DNA of 5,954 nt, taken from the IMG/VR virus record IMGVR_UViG_2684622669_000017; one strand, given 5' to 3'. The notes under the pieces are model-generated. The model saw only the letters and a list, made by a program, of their open reading frames with translations, had not been told where the DNA came from and did no database searches. The DNA is from a virus. Taxonomy: Duplodnaviria > Heunggongvirae > Uroviricota > Caudoviricetes. Positions 1 through 4,213 of the stretch are shown here, piece by piece. Made by a program: the position numbers and the translations under genes. How positions within the stretch are numbered: the first letter of the stretch is position 1; every line of letters starts with the position of its first letter.

Positions 1-108
1 CGGCAGGGGAACCGCCATACTCGCCGTTGCCATTTGTGTCCCCTTGCTGGTGGTCTTTAACTGCGGGTCAGTCGCCAGCCGCCCGTAAGCTGCTATCTGT
101 GCTGTCAT
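1..108 (-). CDS. Partial CDS (5' end only, continues past the left window edge): probable single-stranded-DNA-binding (SSB-like, OB-fold) protein
   Basis: Minus-strand ATG at 108..106 overlaps the TGA stop of the upstream ORF (ATGA). Translation MTAQIAAYGRLATDPQLKTTSKGTQMATASMAVPLP stays open to position 1. The G-R-L-x-x-D-P-x-L...G...A-x-x-S-x-A-V pattern resembles the N-terminus of bacterial/phage SSB. Absent from the ORF track because it is truncated. Confidence 0.4.
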   Translation of the reverse strand, partial: MTAQIAAYGRLATDPQLKTTSKGTQMATASMAVPLP

Positions 109-356
109 GTTGTCTGCTCTCCGGTTTTAACGTTGATGGTTGTCACCTGTTCCGCTTCGGCAATCTCCCGTTCTGTCAGCGTGGCAAAGTTTGCCGCCGC
201 CGTGGTCATGAATGCGCTTATCAGTTCGGGATGTGCTTTCGCGTATCCTTCCCCGGCATGGCGGTCTATCGTTCTGATTGCCACCTTTAAGGCGTGCTCT
301 GTCATGTCTAATGCGCGATATTTTGGTGCTGTCTTATCTCTGGTTTTTCTGGTCAT
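105..356 (-). CDS. Hypothetical protein (83 aa), function unknown; translationally coupled to the downstream SSB-like gene
   Basis: ORF track; ATG at 356..354 preceded on the minus strand by AGAGGTGAGGA (SD-like, itself part of an iteron); protein-like composition; stop TGA overlaps the next start. Alternative in-frame ATG at 305..303 (MTEHALK...) has no SD. Confidence 0.5.
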   Translation of the reverse strand: MTRKTRDKTAPKYRALDMTEHALKVAIRTIDRHAGEGYAKAHPELISAFMTTAAANFATLTEREIAEAEQVTTINVKTGEQTT

Positions 357-560
357 TCCTCACCTCTACTCACTTTTATTCCTCACTTTTTGTTATTCCC
401 GTCCTGCTCCTCACCTGTTTTTTTTGCTTCTGTAATGCGTTGTTTTGCAATGTATTTTTTATTCCTCACTTTTTGACCTATATACAGGTGAGAAAGTGAG
501 GAATAGCGCTGATTTTTTGTTAAATTACCCGCTATCCTCACTTTTGCTCCTCACTTTTTA
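355..560. repeat. Iteron array with AT-rich core: putative origin of replication of the element
   Basis: Direct copies of (A)TTCCTCAC(T)TTTT(G) at 355-363, 369-377 (partial CTCACTTTT), 378-392, 409-414 (followed by T8 at 418-425), 461-475, 533-546 and 547-559. One inverted copy AAAGTGAGGAAT at 493-504. CACCTG (412-417) and CAGGTG (485-490) form an inverted pair flanking an AT-rich stretch 418-484. Lies immediately 3' of the helicase gene; the last iteron overlaps its stop codon. Confidence 0.7.
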
Positions 561-1973
561 CAGTGGGCGCACATAATCACCGTCAATAGCGATTACGCCG
601 TCGCTTTCCAGCTTGTACAGCCAGCGCCGGAAGTTTTTCATTTCATACCCCAGCTTTTTCATATCGTCGCGGAGAAGGGCGATAGTGCACGCCTCCCCGT
701 GTGCTGTTCGCGTTCTGATGCACTGCCATAGCGCGGCATGATTCTCCGTCTTGTTCCCGGCCTCCTCGATGCGCTCCAGTTCAACAGGTGGGCGCGGCTT
801 ATCCACAACCACCAGCGACGTGATTAACTCCCCGTCAGTGTCGGTAAAAAGCTCCACCACGCGTAAATCGTATGCAGCCTCTTTCAGTTCCTCCGCGTCC
901 TTCATTTTGGTGCAGGAGATAACCAGGGCTTCACTGTCTGCACCTTCACGGCGAATACGGTATTCAGCGTCCAGAGATGCACGAAATGCACTGGAACCAC
1001 GCGCCCCCTTTGTTTCATCCTTGCCGGAATGGTGAACCACCAGCACCGTGGCCCCTGTGCGTCGTTTCAGTTCGTCACATCCACGGATAAACGCCCCCAT
1101 ATCCCGCGCGTCATTTTCATCATTACCGCCAAAACACCGCGCCAGCGTATCCAGAATAATCATGCGTACCGGTTTACCCGTTTCCCTTTCAACCTGGCGG
1201 GAAGCGATGACCATTTCATCAACATCAAACTGGGCTGCCGGAAAAATCGGGCGGTTTACCAGGTACAGATTTTCCACCCGTTTATCATTAACGATTTCCC
1301 ATGCCTTGATACGGCGGGGGACACCAATGCCACCTTCACCGACGACATACATCACCGAACCATGCGCCACCCTGCGGCCTCCCCAGTGACGGCCAGTGGC
1401 AACATGACACGCCCAGGAACACGCGAGGAACGATTTATAGGAACCGCTCGCGCCGTATGTGCTGCACAATGAATTAGCCGGAATCACGCCCTTAACGACA
1501 TAATCAAGCTGTGTGTCGTACCCTGCAGATCCAATGCTCATTGGTAGCGTGGTTTTTCGCTGGCTGTATTGCTCGTCAGTAAGTATTTCCCCGCGCTCTG
1601 CCTGTTCGCGGATCCGTTGCAGGTAGTCGTGCCAGTTCTCCAGCTTCTGGCTGTGCATTCCATCAGGGTAATAATTCGCATCCCGTACACCTGCCGCCGC
1701 CAGCTTTTGCCCGATAGCATTAATATTTGACGGCTTGATGTGGCCTGCCTTGTACAGCCGGACACAATAGCGACCATCGTCGATGATTTTCAGGTCTGCC
1801 AGTTCGTCAAGCTGGCTGTCTCCAAGCCATACGGGTGGCACGTTGTCGCCAGCAAGTCGCCCGTCCTGTTCCTGCCATTGTTTCGCGTGCGCCCAGGCAT
1901 CACTACCCGCAAAAATAATGACTTCGGTCATTTTGTCGTGTGGCTGTTTTTTTAAGTTCGGTGCCAGTTTCAT
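558..1973 (-). CDS. RepA-like replicative helicase / replication initiator, AAA_25 (RecA-fold) ATPase family, with C-terminal putative winged-helix DNA-binding region
   Basis: 471-aa ORF, ATG at 1973..1971 with AGGGT SD-like 5 nt upstream, ATGA overlap with the upstream ORF stop. Motifs: P-loop-like VIPANSLCSTYGASGSYKSFLA (Walker A variant with Y in place of the second Gly, verified on the DNA as TAT), Walker B MIILDTL, and VLVVHHSGKD characteristic of RepA/AAA_25 helicases. Iterons lie immediately downstream. Confidence 0.8.
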   Translation of the reverse strand: MKLAPNLKKQPHDKMTEVIIFAGSDAWAHAKQWQEQDGRLAGDNVPPVWLGDSQLDELADLKIIDDGRYCVRLYKAGHIKPSNINAIGQKLAAAGVRDANYYPDGMHSQKLENWHDYLQRIREQAERGEILTDEQYSQRKTTLPMSIGSAGYDTQLDYVVKGVIPANSLCSTYGASGSYKSFLACSWACHVATGRHWGGRRVAHGSVMYVVGEGGIGVPRRIKAWEIVNDKRVENLYLVNRPIFPAAQFDVDEMVIASRQVERETGKPVRMIILDTLARCFGGNDENDARDMGAFIRGCDELKRRTGATVLVVHHSGKDETKGARGSSAFRASLDAEYRIRREGADSEALVISCTKMKDAEELKEAAYDLRVVELFTDTDGELITSLVVVDKPRPPVELERIEEAGNKTENHAALWQCIRTRTAHGEACTIALLRDDMKKLGYEMKNFRRWLYKLESDGVIAIDGDYVRPL

Positions 1974-2269
1974 TTTTTACCCCTGAATGCGTTAATCATG
2001 TTTTTCATTTTCTGAATATTTGCCCGTGCCTTTGCGTTGCTGGTGGGCTGTTTGCGTGGTGTGGCCTGTATCAGTGAAAAATCACGCCGGAACTGATAAA
2101 CAGGCATCACGCAGTCATAACCGTACCCATCACGGCGGTAAGTAACGCACCGTCCCGCCACGCTTTTAATCGTTACCGTGCCGCCGTAGTTATCCCGGAA
2201 AATATCGCCGGGGCGGATTTCAGGCCGAGCGGGGCCGCTGGCAGTAAAGCCAGAATTTTTCTTTTTCAT
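1970..2269 (-). CDS. Hypothetical protein (99 aa), function unknown; translationally coupled to the helicase gene
   Basis: ORF track; ATG at 2269..2267 preceded by GAGGAA 7 nt upstream; TGA stop overlaps the helicase ATG (ATGA). No recognisable motif. Confidence 0.6.
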   Translation of the reverse strand: MKKKNSGFTASGPARPEIRPGDIFRDNYGGTVTIKSVAGRCVTYRRDGYGYDCVMPVYQFRRDFSLIQATPRKQPTSNAKARANIQKMKNMINAFRGKK

Positions 2270-2339
2270 GGTTTTTATTCCTCTGCGCGGGTCTTGTCGT
2301 GTATTTCCATAACCGCGTTTAATTCATCAATAACCGGGG

Positions 2340-2483
2340 TTAACAGAGTGCTGAAAGCAGAAAGTAAATACCCCCCCGCTCGGTGTTATTTTCGGTTAAT
2401 TCATCCAGTACCGTTTTTAATTCAAGCGCCCTGATTAATGCATTCTCAGAATGAATAAGAACATCGAAAGGGATTTTATCCAT
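2340..2483 (-). CDS. Small hypothetical ORF (47 aa as sequenced); would be 69 aa ending at 2275 if the G7 tract were G8
   Basis: ATG at 2483..2481 with GGAGGA 8 nt upstream, overlapping the stop of the upstream ORF (ATGGATAA). Translation MDKIPFDVLIHSENALIRALELKTVLDELTENNTERGGIYFLLSALC. A +1 change in the homopolymer at 2371-2377 extends the reading frame to a TAA at 2275-2277, directly in front of the RBS of the next gene. Below the ORF-track length cutoff. Confidence 0.4.
   Translation of the reverse strand: MDKIPFDVLIHSENALIRALELKTVLDELTENNTERGGIYFLLSALC
2371..2377. repeat. C7 (plus) / G7 (mRNA) homopolymer inside a coding region; candidate frameshift site
   Basis: cccccccg at 2371-2378; read directly from the sequence. 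Confidence 0.9.
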
Positions 2484-2709
2484 GGCTTACATCCTCCGGG
2501 AATTTTCTTCTGTAACGCGCCTCTGCCACATATTCAGCATAGTCCGACGCAATAACGAGAATATCGCTGCCTGTTCCTGAATGCTCAGTGGTTCCAATTA
2601 AAAAACATGCGGCCTTTATCAGGTCATTAACAACCAGCAACGCATCACCCGCATCATCCGATACGCCATCAAATTCCTGTTTCAGGGCATTAAAACGATC
2701 ATCACGCAT
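2476..2709 (-). CDS. Hypothetical protein (77 aa); possibly the C-terminal part of a gene split by the G9 tract
   Basis: ORF track; ATG at 2709..2707 lies 2 nt after the G9 run (the run could act as an SD but the spacing is short); overlaps the 3' end of the upstream ORF by 28 nt in another frame. Confidence 0.5.
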   Translation of the reverse strand: MRDDRFNALKQEFDGVSDDAGDALLVVNDLIKAACFLIGTTEHSGTGSDILVIASDYAEYVAEARYRRKFPEDVSHG

Positions 2710-2942
2710 AACCCCCCCCCATTTTCACAATCAGCAATCAGGATGGCTTTGGCCTCATTCAGTGCCATATCAGCGGTAAGCTGTGCGTAGGCCAGCGAAT
2801 GGGGGATTATTGCCCCTGTATACTCCGGCTCTCTGGTAATGTGTTTTTCTGCGGTTGCTGCCGTGCATGAAATATCAATCAGCGCGCGCATTAGCGTTCT
2901 GATAGCTTCGTCGGCTGCGTCCGGACGGGTGTTATTGCACAT
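2682..2942 (-). CDS. Hypothetical protein (86 aa); possibly the N-terminal part of a gene split by the G9 tract
   Basis: ORF track; ATG at 2942..2940 with GGAGG 6 nt upstream; start overlaps the stop of the Icd-like gene (ATGTGCAATAA). The final 9 codons after the G9 tract (LCVMIVLMP) look like out-of-frame read-through. Confidence 0.55.
   Translation of the reverse strand: MCNNTRPDAADEAIRTLMRALIDISCTAATAEKHITREPEYTGAIIPHSLAYAQLTADMALNEAKAILIADCENGGGLCVMIVLMP
2712..2720. repeat. C9 (plus) / G9 (mRNA) homopolymer at the junction of two overlapping ORFs; candidate frameshift, slippage or sequencing-error site
   Basis: accccccccc at 2711-2720; read directly from the sequence. One extra G would fuse ORF 2682..2942 to ORF 2476..2709 (...DCENGGG-VMRDDRFNALK...), giving about 151 aa. 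Confidence 0.9.
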
Positions 2943-3138
2943 GGTGCACCTCCTGACGAATACGGGCGGCGAATACCATCACGCAGCCAGCCGGTGATTG
3001 TTGACGGGCTTCCTGTTCGCTGGTGGCCACGATGTGAATCACGCGCGGTTGTGCCGTGCTCAGGGCGATAAAACGCCAGATGTATTTATTCAGGTTGTGC
3101 GAGTCCCGCCCTTGCGGGTGTGTGGTATGATTTCTCAT
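2932..3138 (-). CDS. Small protein (68 aa) resembling Icd-like (host cell-division inhibitor-like) proteins of P4-type elements; first gene of the leftward operon
   Basis: ATG at 3138..3136 with GAGGT 4 nt upstream. Translation MRNHTTHPQGRDSHNLNKYIWRFIALSTAQPRVIHIVATSEQEARQQSPAGCVMVFAARIRQEVHHVQ. The W-R-F-x-A...ATSEQEAR...FAAR pattern matches, from memory, the Icd-like small-protein family. It is the 3' end of a 356-aa ORF-track entry whose upstream part I consider non-coding. Confidence 0.55.
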   Translation of the reverse strand: MRNHTTHPQGRDSHNLNKYIWRFIALSTAQPRVIHIVATSEQEARQQSPAGCVMVFAARIRQEVHHVQ

Positions 3139-3175
3139 AGCTACCTCGATACTTCTGCTATCGTTGGTGGTTAGA

Positions 3176-3209
3176 AGCCCTGCGAGTGGTAACGACACTT
3201 GCGGGGCTT
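3176..3209 (-). promoter_or_regulatory. 13-bp imperfect inverted repeat (AGCCCTGCGAGTG-N8-CACTTGCGGGGCT) in the predicted 5' leader of the leftward operon
   Basis: Read from sequence; 11/13 Watson-Crick matches, and both mismatches become G.U pairs in RNA; lies between the predicted leftward promoter and the Icd-like RBS. Confidence 0.45.
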
Positions 3210-3230
3210 TGCATTTATGCGCCTTGATAA

Positions 3231-3271
3231 TTTTAAGGTGTGGCCCACTATATGTTTTAGGTGTGGTCCAC
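3231..3271. promoter_or_regulatory. Tandem operator-like repeats TTTTA(A)GGTGTGG(C/T)CCAC, each containing a GTGG-N-CCAC palindrome
   Basis: Repeat 1 at 3231-3248 (palindrome GTGGCCCAC 3240-3248), repeat 2 at 3255-3271 (GTGGTCCAC 3263-3271), period about 24 bp. They overlap the -10 and spacer of the predicted leftward promoter and lie upstream of the RHH gene. Confidence 0.55.
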
Positions 3272-3276
3272 GTCAA
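3247..3276 (-). promoter_or_regulatory. Predicted sigma70 promoter for the leftward Icd-like/helicase operon (TTGACG-N18-TATAGT)
   Basis: Minus-strand -35 TTGACG (3276..3271) and -10 TATAGT (3252..3247) with an 18-nt spacer; predicted TSS near 3240; both operator repeats overlap it. Confidence 0.5.
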
Positions 3277-3337
3277 GAGTTTTATTTGTGCTTTTTCTGT
3301 GTATACTGTCCCCCACCAATCCACCAGAGGAATAGAA

Positions 3338-3517
3338 ATGGCAACGGGTACAACAAACGCAAAATCACAAGCTCTAAAGGCTCGTGTACCACACGAAATA
3401 GTAAACGCCATGGAATCAGTGAAAGAATCAGGCGAAAGCACATCACAATTCATCATTACGTCAATGCAAGGCGAGATCAAACGCCGCCAGCGGCGCAAGG
3501 CCAAAGAGCAGGAGTAA
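3338..3517 (+). CDS. Ribbon-helix-helix (Arc/MetJ/CopG-like) DNA-binding protein, 59 aa; candidate repressor of the divergent promoter
   Basis: ATG at 3338 with GAGG 7 nt upstream. Translation MATGTTNAKSQALKARVPHEIVNAMESVKESGESTSQFIITSMQGEIKRRQRRKAKEQE. Beta-strand (LKARVP) - helix A (HEIVNAMESVKES) - G-x-S turn - helix B matches the RHH signature (compare Arc NLRWPREVLDLVRKVAEENGRSVNSEIYQRVME). Palindromic repeats lie upstream. Confidence 0.65.
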   Translation: MATGTTNAKSQALKARVPHEIVNAMESVKESGESTSQFIITSMQGEIKRRQRRKAKEQE

Positions 3518-3574
3518 CCATCACCAGCGCCGTGGTGTGAGTAACTACGGCGCATTGCTATGCAGGACAACACA

Positions 3575-3748
3575 ATGACCGATAAAGAATTGACCAAAAC
3601 ATTATCACCGGCACGGAAAAGACGGCGCAGAAAGATAGAACATGAATCAGAAAGATTCGCACCTTGTTCGTTTGCTCTTGAGAAATTCCTTAAAGAGCAC
3701 AGGAAAAAGCTCTCGTTGCAAACCTTGGAACGAACCAAATCTGACTGA
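3575..3748 (+). CDS. Small basic protein (57 aa; 62 aa if translation starts at the upstream ATG 3560), function unknown
   Basis: ATG at 3575 preceded by AGGA (3564-3567) with 7-nt spacing; the ORF-track start at 3560 lacks an SD. Translation MTDKELTKTLSPARKRRRRKIEHESERFAPCSFALEKFLKEHRKKLSLQTLERTKSD; same frame as the RHH gene but separated by two stop codons. Confidence 0.45.
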   Translation: MTDKELTKTLSPARKRRRRKIEHESERFAPCSFALEKFLKEHRKKLSLQTLERTKSD

Positions 3749-3827
3749 TCACATTGCCCACCAGCCGCAAATGTGGCATTGTTGGTGATGCTCATACGTT
3801 GGGGATAACGTGTAGCTTGTGTCGAGG

Positions 3828-3855
3828 GGCCACCGTAGCGGTTGGCCTTTGTTTT
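3828..3855 (+). terminator. Probable intrinsic terminator of the RHH/small-protein operon
   Basis: Hairpin GGCCACCG-tag-CGGTTGGCC (8 bp with one bulge) followed by TTTGTTTT (3848-3855). Confidence 0.45.
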
Positions 3856-3872
3856 GCCTGTTATCCGGCAAT

Positions 3873-3902
3873 TGTGGCGCTTCGCCACACGGTTGATATA
3901 AT
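3873..3902 (+). promoter_or_regulatory. Extended -10 promoter (TGaTATAAT at 3894-3902) overlapped by a perfect 7-bp-arm palindrome TGTGGCG-CTT-CGCCACA (3873-3889)
   Basis: Perfect TATAAT at 3897-3902 preceded by TG at 3894-3895; -35 is weak (TTGTGG 3872-3877, 19-nt spacer); the palindrome occupies the -35/spacer region like an operator. Confidence 0.4.
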
Positions 3903-3908
3903 TCCCCT

Positions 3909-3979
3909 GCACTGATCCATTTTTTTCGCAGCAGGTTAATTGTTCGCAAGGGCGCTCCGGTAACGGGGCGCTTTTTGTT
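3909..3979 (+). ncRNA. Candidate small RNA (about 70 nt) between its own promoter and an intrinsic terminator
   Basis: Predicted TSS about 7 nt after the TATAAT; transcript ends at the 3952-3979 terminator; no ORF with an RBS in between; contains a possible 5' hairpin CCTGC...GCAGG. Entirely inferential. Confidence 0.3.
3952..3979 (+). terminator. Intrinsic terminator (plus strand): GC-rich 8-bp stem with GUAA tetraloop and U-tract
   Basis: GCGCTCCG-gtaa-CGGGGCGC (one U.G pair) followed by TTTTTGTT (3972-3979). On the minus strand the hairpin is not followed by a T-run, so it is unidirectional. Confidence 0.55.
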
Positions 3980-4006
3980 ATGTTCATCGCGTTACGCCTC
4001 ACACCA

Positions 4007-4213
4007 TTACGCAGCCGTTCCGCGCGCTTCTTCCTCGCGCTCTTTCAGCCAGGCCAGCACTTCATCTTCATACCAGCCAACACGACGCAGACCGATTTTG
4101 AATCCTTTCGGGAATTTTCCGGCGTTGATCATGTCCTGTAGCGAACTGTCTGCCTTGATGCGCAGAATATTTTTTACTTCCTGACGGGTAAGTATTTTTC
4201 TGATTGTTTCCAC
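4007..4213 (-). CDS. alpA: AlpA-family phage regulatory protein (transcriptional activator / excisionase-like, winged HTH)
   Basis: 68-aa ORF starting at GTG 4213..4211 with GAGGT 8 nt upstream. Translation ...ILTRQEVKNILRIKADSSLQDMINAGKFPKGFKIGLRRVGWYEDEVLAWLKER aligns with E. coli AlpA motifs (FPK, VGW, E-x-E-[IV]-x-x-W-L). Confidence 0.8.
   Translation of the reverse strand: METIRKILTRQEVKNILRIKADSSLQDMINAGKFPKGFKIGLRRVGWYEDEVLAWLKEREEEARGTAA

Follow-up and report, generated by a model that had tools for sequence, protein, structure and literature searches.

Is a small gene broken at a run of guanines in a phage satellite a product of sequencing error, a deliberately slippery switch, or a natural allele that happens to be out of frame? 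The question is raised by positions 2275-2483 of the window, i.e. the whole 5,954-nt stretch of DNA analysed here (IMG/VR record IMGVR_UViG_2684622669_000017), in which a preliminary description noticed two consecutive ORFs interrupted at poly-G tracts and suggested either systematic homopolymer under-calling or deliberate slippage-controlled expression. Our analysis leads to another answer. We propose, with a probability of about 80%, that the G7 tract of the second of these genes is a genuine heritable OFF allele of a hypermutable mononucleotide repeat, made by replication slippage.

Judging by its gene content, the element that holds the window looks like an integrative satellite of E. coli of the capsid-forming PICI (cf-PICI) type. 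The window contains a tyrosine integrase, AlpA and a replicase module, a combination that serves as one of the marks of cf-PICIs, and in relatives with an identical DUF4222 protein an SSB gene and a Phage_cap_E capsid gene are found downstream, the latter at about 3 kb; the window itself ends before any capsid module. This content, together with the gene order in the relatives, matches the capsid-forming PICIs described for EcCIEDL933. Members of the EcCIEDL933 family (bioRxiv 10.1101/2022.09.08.507074) resemble the window in int, alpA and the replicase module, and the small genes and G tracts of the present operon are absent from the text of that paper. Over positions 1900-3200 of the window, no match in 5,426 complete E. 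coli genomes exceeds 95.9%, and an Rfam scan of the whole window returned no family. The genes discussed below belong to a tightly packed leftward operon that runs from the Icd-like gene to the 83-aa gene (Table 1).

Table 1. Features of the window around the two poly-G tracts and in the rest of the satellite module
Feature	Position	Strand	Remarks
Integrase ORF, 413 aa	4713..5954	-	counterpart of the relatives' integrase with Phage_integrase domains
AlpA-family regulator	4007..4213	-	PF05930
Candidate sigma-70-like promoter of the operon, TTGACG-18-TATAGT	3247..3276	-	consensus match only
Icd-like gene, first in the leftward operon	2932..3141	-	phrog_6196; RefSeq annotation of relatives
86-aa ORF, N-terminal half of the 154-aa protein with a frameshifted tail	2682..2942	-	phrog_5146
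Poly-G tract 2 (C9 on the + strand)	2712..2720	-	2 nt upstream of the ATG of the 77-aa ORF
77-aa ORF, C-terminal half of the 154-aa protein	2476..2709	-	phrog_24341; stand-alone gene in other elements
Truncated 47-aa ORF, OFF allele	2340..2483	-	36-37 native residues, then the frameshifted tail IYFLLSALC
Poly-G tract 1 (C7 on the + strand)	2371..2377	-	frameshift site; ON for this allele type is G8
Full extent of the 68-70 aa gene	2275..2483	-	phrog_2196; frame past the tract open and 100% identical to ON alleles
GAGGAA and TAA stop	2275..2283	-	Shine-Dalgarno site of the DUF4222 gene; TAA 5 nt before its ATG
DUF4222 gene, 99 aa, intact, next in the operon	1970..2269	-	PF13973, E = 2e-24
RepA-type helicase/replicase, 471 aa, AAA_25	558..1973	-	start overlaps the DUF4222 stop (ATGA)
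83-aa gene	105..356		listed with the leftward operon

The geometry of the lesion was described correctly in the main. A run of seven C's on the + strand, G7 in the sense of the gene, does lie inside the 47-aa ORF, and when one G is added in silico the resulting run of eight opens a 69-aa ORF that ends at the TAA of positions 2275-2277. The placement of this TAA directly before the GAGGAA ribosome-binding site has to be amended: it stands between GAGGAA and the ATG (in sense, GAG GAA TAA AAACC ATG), and the restored ORF has GAGGAA as its final two sense codons, a junction with the DUF4222 gene that is conserved in all relatives. The reading frame is set by the length of tract 1, with G5, G8 and G11 in frame and other lengths out of it. 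Cut in silico to 5, the run opens an ORF of 68 aa; set to 6 or 9, it leads into the second wrong frame, with ORFs of 51 or 52 aa. Past tract 1, no internal in-frame restart codon can be read from the sequence until the last 11 codons, so that the frameshift truly truncates the protein, unlike at tract 2. The preceding gene is likewise split at a poly-G run (C9 on the + strand) and repaired by one additional G (G10), as had been stated, and removal of two (G7) repairs it as well. These are the only G/C runs of 7 nt or more in the window. When the dinucleotides of the window are shuffled, the expectation for CCCCCCC is 0.67, against four overlapping matches in the two tracts, a count that 1 of 200 shuffles reached. 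A single C7 in the window is unremarkable by chance, and the non-random features of tract 1 are its position in a coding loop and its polymorphism in the population.

The protein restored by the eighth G matches phrog_2196, a PHROGs family of no assigned function, over its entire length. In a search of 5.8 billion proteins its homologues of 68, 69 and 70 aa differed solely in having one, two or three Gly at the tract, and the same search gave more distant homologues of 75 aa with an acidic loop and without the G tract. For the 68-aa form, which is 99% identical, a confident AlphaFold2 model (pLDDT 89) predicts a helical hairpin with helix 6-32, loop 33-36 and helix 37-67, in which the tract codons CGG GGG GGG would provide Arg36 and one to three Gly in the loop and in the cap at the N-terminus of helix 2. 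Such a position would explain why in-frame length changes are tolerated. The 47-aa product is left without helix 2, and from this loss we infer that it is presumably non-functional. Pfam has no family for either the 69-aa or the 154-aa protein, PHROGs offers for them only families with no assigned function, and a Foldseek comparison of the model with the PDB returned generic helical hairpins, the best at E = 1.9, from which no function can be inferred.

The slot of the 69-aa gene behaves as a cassette. In L008 and L011 (2762-2995) it is occupied by a 77-aa gene with no G tract and little sequence similarity, and in L101-L109, L136-L138 and L153 by the 75-aa homologue, which is 53-58% identical, has the acidic loop in place of Gly and is intact in 13 of 13 cases.

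Comparison with relatives shows how variable tract 1 is in nature. Its length ranges from G4 to G13, and truncated forms of 46-52 aa arise in both wrong frames, from G4, G6, G7, G9, G10 and G13. We took a census of 40 distinct contigs from complete RefSeq genomes, NCBI and ENA (by exact look-up of the DUF4222 protein), IMG/VR and metagenomes. Tract 1 is in frame (ON) in 19 of the 40 and out of frame (OFF), in both wrong frames, in 21, proportions which are rough, because the contigs lack phylogenetic independence and too few of the short ORFs are called. Gene length in these contigs is distributed unimodally around the in-frame 210 nt: 207 (3 contigs), 208 (5), 209 (9), 210 (16), 211 (6) and 212 (1). 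All 21 OFF alleles keep the frame past the tract open and identical to that of ON alleles, with no second lesion. Disruption is tied to the tract itself, being seen in 21 of 40 tract-bearing genes versus 0 of 13 tract-less 75-aa homologues (p = 6e-4). Moreover, contigs with zero substitutions in about 921 flanking nucleotides nevertheless differ in tract 1 (L001 versus L005, L009 and L010; L133 versus L135) or in tract 2 (L005 versus L009; L006 versus L014 and L016), which implies that tract length changes at a rate at least ~1000 times that of per-site substitution. The tract is uninterrupted in two diverged allele classes, and interrupted alleles are found in L140/L145, P0003 and P0024.

Two further observations concern individual genomes. 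The assembly NZ_CP128979.1 (strain TUM1881) carries two related elements in differing states, one (L002) with tract 1 ON (G8) and tract 2 at G7, the other (L161) with tract 1 OFF (G7) and tract 2 at G11. In NZ_CP122620.1 (strain ETEC4090; L157, positions 1-389), which holds a 47-aa OFF allele, RefSeq marks the downstream gene at the replicase position as 'frameshifted' with the product 'hypothetical protein', and its siblings L155 and L156 have a DUF927 gene at that position.

Tract 2 follows another pattern. Its lengths in 78 contigs are G7 (15), G8 (31 and 1 interrupted), G9 (21), G10 (4), G11 (1) and G4 (3), with a few variants, and 23 of the 78 (29.5%) are in frame, near the 1/3 that is expected if frame is immaterial. 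A run of G7, G10 or G4 yields a fused protein of 154-155 aa, G8 yields ORFs of 79 and 77 aa, and G9, the state of the window, yields 86 and 77 aa. In PHROGs the fused protein and its two halves each have a family of their own, and the 77-aa homologue stands alone in more than 20 other elements, where it is preceded by CA-G6/7/10-TAAAC-ATG. Taken together, the length states and the separate families indicate that tract 2 toggles the gene between two ORFs and one fused product of 154-155 aa. Translation of the 77-aa ORF may plausibly persist through coupling, in which the G run would serve as a Shine-Dalgarno-like element.

About 110 nt around tract 2 (flanks 2660-2790) are invariant or show few differences in 15 aligned sequences, within adjoining sequence that is mosaic and has diverged. 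A third variable G run, CA-Gn-TAAAC-ATG, occurs at about 1480-1500 of the loci L031, L036-L038, L047, L052, L057, L073 and L080-L094, with n = 6 at 17 loci, 7 at one and 10 at two, and as G7-AAAC at 3 loci; it overlaps the last codons and the stop of a different upstream gene and a likely Shine-Dalgarno region.

Of the two explanations offered by the preliminary description, under-calling supposes that the true copy is G8 and that G7 is a homopolymer error of long-read or 454 data. It can appeal to the fact that both frameshifts of the window fall at its two longest G/C runs, each formally repaired by one G, and to the higher share of OFF copies in complete, often long-read, genomes (11 of 16) than in other sources. 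Against it stands the wide recurrence of the allele. The exact 47-aa product of the window, recorded as 'MULTISPECIES: hypothetical protein [Escherichia]', is present on 88 contigs across NCBI drafts, Logan and ENA, and the index of the collection lists it in 179 blocks. The G7 allele itself was found, with 0-1 mismatch per 209 nt, at nine of ten places examined (L167-L176 except L172), in assemblies that are mostly draft WGS when platform is judged by the style of accession and contig name; the tenth (L172, ETEC4090) makes the same 47-aa product from a G8-ATTTAC variant. The nine copies lie next to a DUF927 primase or a RepA helicase, a DUF4222 gene of 96-105 aa and a tract 2 of G7, G8 or G9, and the same allele recurs in the IMG/VR contig L019 and the SPAdes metagenome contig L134. 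Such recurrence in varied backgrounds makes a long-read artefact very unlikely. OFF alleles are also held by SPAdes-style metagenome contigs at about 16-20x coverage, and RefSeq complete genomes annotate the 47-, 51- and 52-aa frame variants. The G9 state of tract 2 in the window is the second commonest (21 of 78) and is shared with L005 and L010, whose accessions look like short-read drafts. Elsewhere in the window, 35 homopolymers of 5-7 nt lie within ORFs open from start to stop codon and are free of error by this measure. A platform that under-calls homopolymers would, besides, tend to break both tracts together, whereas their frame states are independent across contigs (Fisher, odds ratio 1.17, p = 1.0). 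The preliminary description had named a different C-terminus in 47-aa relatives, or high-accuracy reads with a G7 free of length variation, as findings that would tell against its interpretation; the 47-aa relatives share the C-terminal tail of the window, and tract length varies widely. Systematic under-calling thus finds no support in these data, an artefact at this position is very improbable, and the G7 of the window is, by these comparisons, almost certainly a real, inherited variant. An equally slim chance, if not a slightly slimmer one, may be given to recoding, by which a full-length protein would be made from the OFF allele and the DNA frame would be immaterial, either through -1 ribosomal frameshifting on G_GGG_GGT or through slippage of RNA polymerase along the C7 template. 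Formally, the run can be read as an X_XXY_YYZ heptamer in the zero frame, and near-neutral frame frequencies with no other lesions in OFF alleles would be explained if every frame gave some product. Natural alleles in both wrong frames would, however, need both -1 and +1 shifts, which no single programmed signal can serve, and homologues exist in all three frames. G-only heptamers are poor -1 sites in E. coli. RNA structure that could stimulate frameshifting, or sequester the DUF4222 ribosome-binding site upon an early stop, was sought downstream of the tract, and the folds were no better than shuffled ones (z = -0.26; z = 0.73), with no Rfam match. Rescue by transcriptional slippage is characteristic of A/T runs of about 9 nt or more, and the tract is a G/C run of 7 nt; in the E. 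coli transcriptome the homopolymer insertions were all in A/T runs and none in G/C (PMC5574713). In IS elements and in the poly-A slippage rescue of Buchnera/Blochmannia (PMC1088944, PMC5574713) the homopolymer is similarly within coding sequence and OFF alleles are otherwise intact, but the runs are A/T of about 9 nt or more, versus the G/C run of the satellite.

The other explanation, deliberate slippage-controlled expression, holds in part: DNA-level slippage does appear to make ON and OFF alleles at both tracts, while slippage of RNA polymerase or ribosome is unsupported and nothing among our results shows selection or regulation. Its stronger form would be adaptive phase variation, in which replication slippage is the same and selection for mutability is added, the poly-G tracts being kept as stochastic reversible ON/OFF switches of two accessory genes for bet-hedging in the conflict of satellite, helper phage and host. 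As in simple-sequence-repeat phase-variable loci, a repeat inside the ORF sets the frame, and length polymorphism gives ON and OFF states among close relatives. Two long G tracts separated by about 340 nt, in genes that follow each other within a single operon, would suit such a role, and so would the presence of ON and OFF alleles in near-identical backgrounds, the lack of secondary lesions in OFF alleles, a tract unbroken in two diverged allele classes, and lengths up to G11-G13 versus a maximum of 9 nt in the E. coli coding transcriptome (Traverse and Ochman, PMC5574713). The frequencies speak against it: tract 2 is in frame near the neutral third, and the 47.5% ON of tract 1 exceeds the neutral 33% weakly (p = 0.04, with non-independent samples). 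The states of tracts 1 and 2 are uncorrelated, interrupted alleles do occur, and the G7 OFF allele is widespread over mosaic backgrounds, which resembles the stable inheritance of an allele and not its rapid switching. Neutrality, too, would leave OFF alleles without secondary lesions, provided that the mutation rate of the tract exceeds that of other sites more than 1000-fold. E. coli has efficient mismatch repair, and to our knowledge simple-sequence-repeat switching is not among the well-known phase-variation mechanisms of this species; we also know of no report of repeat-driven phase variation of this kind in E. coli or phage satellites. Our literature search for phase variation or poly-G tracts, in E. 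coli prophages or in cf-PICIs, yielded nothing relevant and no support for an adaptive role. The contingency genes of Neisseria, Haemophilus, Campylobacter and Bordetella are the closest parallel, having the same poly-G/C within the coding sequence, frame switching by slipped-strand mispairing, and ON and OFF states among near-identical strains with the OFF allele otherwise intact, as at tract 1. They differ in that the tract 1 gene encodes a small cytoplasmic satellite protein and not a surface or restriction-modification one, in that the frame frequencies of the satellite tracts are near neutral, and in the host, which is E. coli. On balance we consider selected switching unlikely. It is similarly doubtful that the early operon of E. 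coli cf-PICIs carries two or more adjacent poly-G contingency tracts acting as independent reversible switches, one turning the hairpin protein ON or OFF and the other making a fused or a split protein; if it did, clonal lysogens would hold mixed satellite 'phenotypes', a form of bet-hedging against helper phages or host defences.

The preferred reading, a heritable OFF allele made by replication slippage, may be described as follows. A small accessory gene in the early/replication operon of the satellite would normally encode a 68-70 aa helix-loop-helix protein, and slipped-strand mispairing during DNA replication would add or remove G's in it at the high relative rate estimated above. The E. 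coli population would then contain a cloud of tract lengths around the in-frame mode, in which the window carries the -1 allele (G7), giving the 47-aa product. In the OFF state, translation would end at 2340-2342, some 70 nt short of the DUF4222 start; this gene retains a GAGGA site of its own, and translation of the remaining operon probably continues. With that site and no sequestering structure, strong polarity on DUF4222 or RepA is not to be expected. We infer that replication slippage is the cause, that polarity on downstream genes is small and that the change is reversible.

What is known of E. coli mutation agrees with this mechanism. The indel rate in E. coli rises exponentially with run length (PMC8510543), and the hypervariability of the tracts fits this dependence. 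The polymorphic, or 'reversible', pseudogenes at homopolymer hotspots of E. coli, described in mutation accumulation work of the Foster laboratory (PMC8510543), represent the same slippage at a long G:C run, with indels confined to the run, as at tract 1. The runs of the satellite are as long as, or longer than, the 8-bp G:C genome outliers of that study, and the satellite differs from the hotspot pseudogenes in that it recombines as cassettes, so that one OFF allele spans many mosaic backgrounds. Frameshift polymorphism at hypermutable homopolymers is a known kind of feature, and we found no report of it for cf-PICI-type satellites of E. coli.

For annotation this means that the frameshift at tract 1, an allele common in nature, should be left as it stands and not be 'corrected' like a sequencing error. 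Only two genes, in different frame variants, underlie the 'hypothetical proteins' of 47 aa, 51/52 aa and 77/79/86 aa that RefSeq and PHROGs list. The long G:C runs of E. coli satellites would produce ON/OFF diversity at an appreciable rate and, if these small proteins act in the interplay of satellite and helper phage, they would be a simple source of heterogeneous satellite behaviour. Public strains already hold G7, G8 and G9 alleles in otherwise identical backgrounds.

Two other features of the window deserve mention. A 356-aa GTG-initiated ORF (2932-4002, - strand) runs antisense to the + strand genes at 3338-3517 and 3560-3748 and into the Icd-like gene, and some gene callers report it in relatives (L005, L011) as a 351-aa protein. 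It is probably spurious, because similarity to the Icd-like/repressor PHROG is confined to its last 69 codons and there is a promoter-like site at 3276-3247. Positions 345-560, in the stretch from the 83-aa gene to the RepA helicase gene, contain iteron-like direct and inverted repeats of TCCTCAC(T/C)TTT, including three copies of TTTTATTCCTCACTTTTTG at a spacing of 83-85 nt, and a 23-nt palindrome at 460-505; owing to the location of the repeats between these two genes, this region is probably the replication origin of the satellite.
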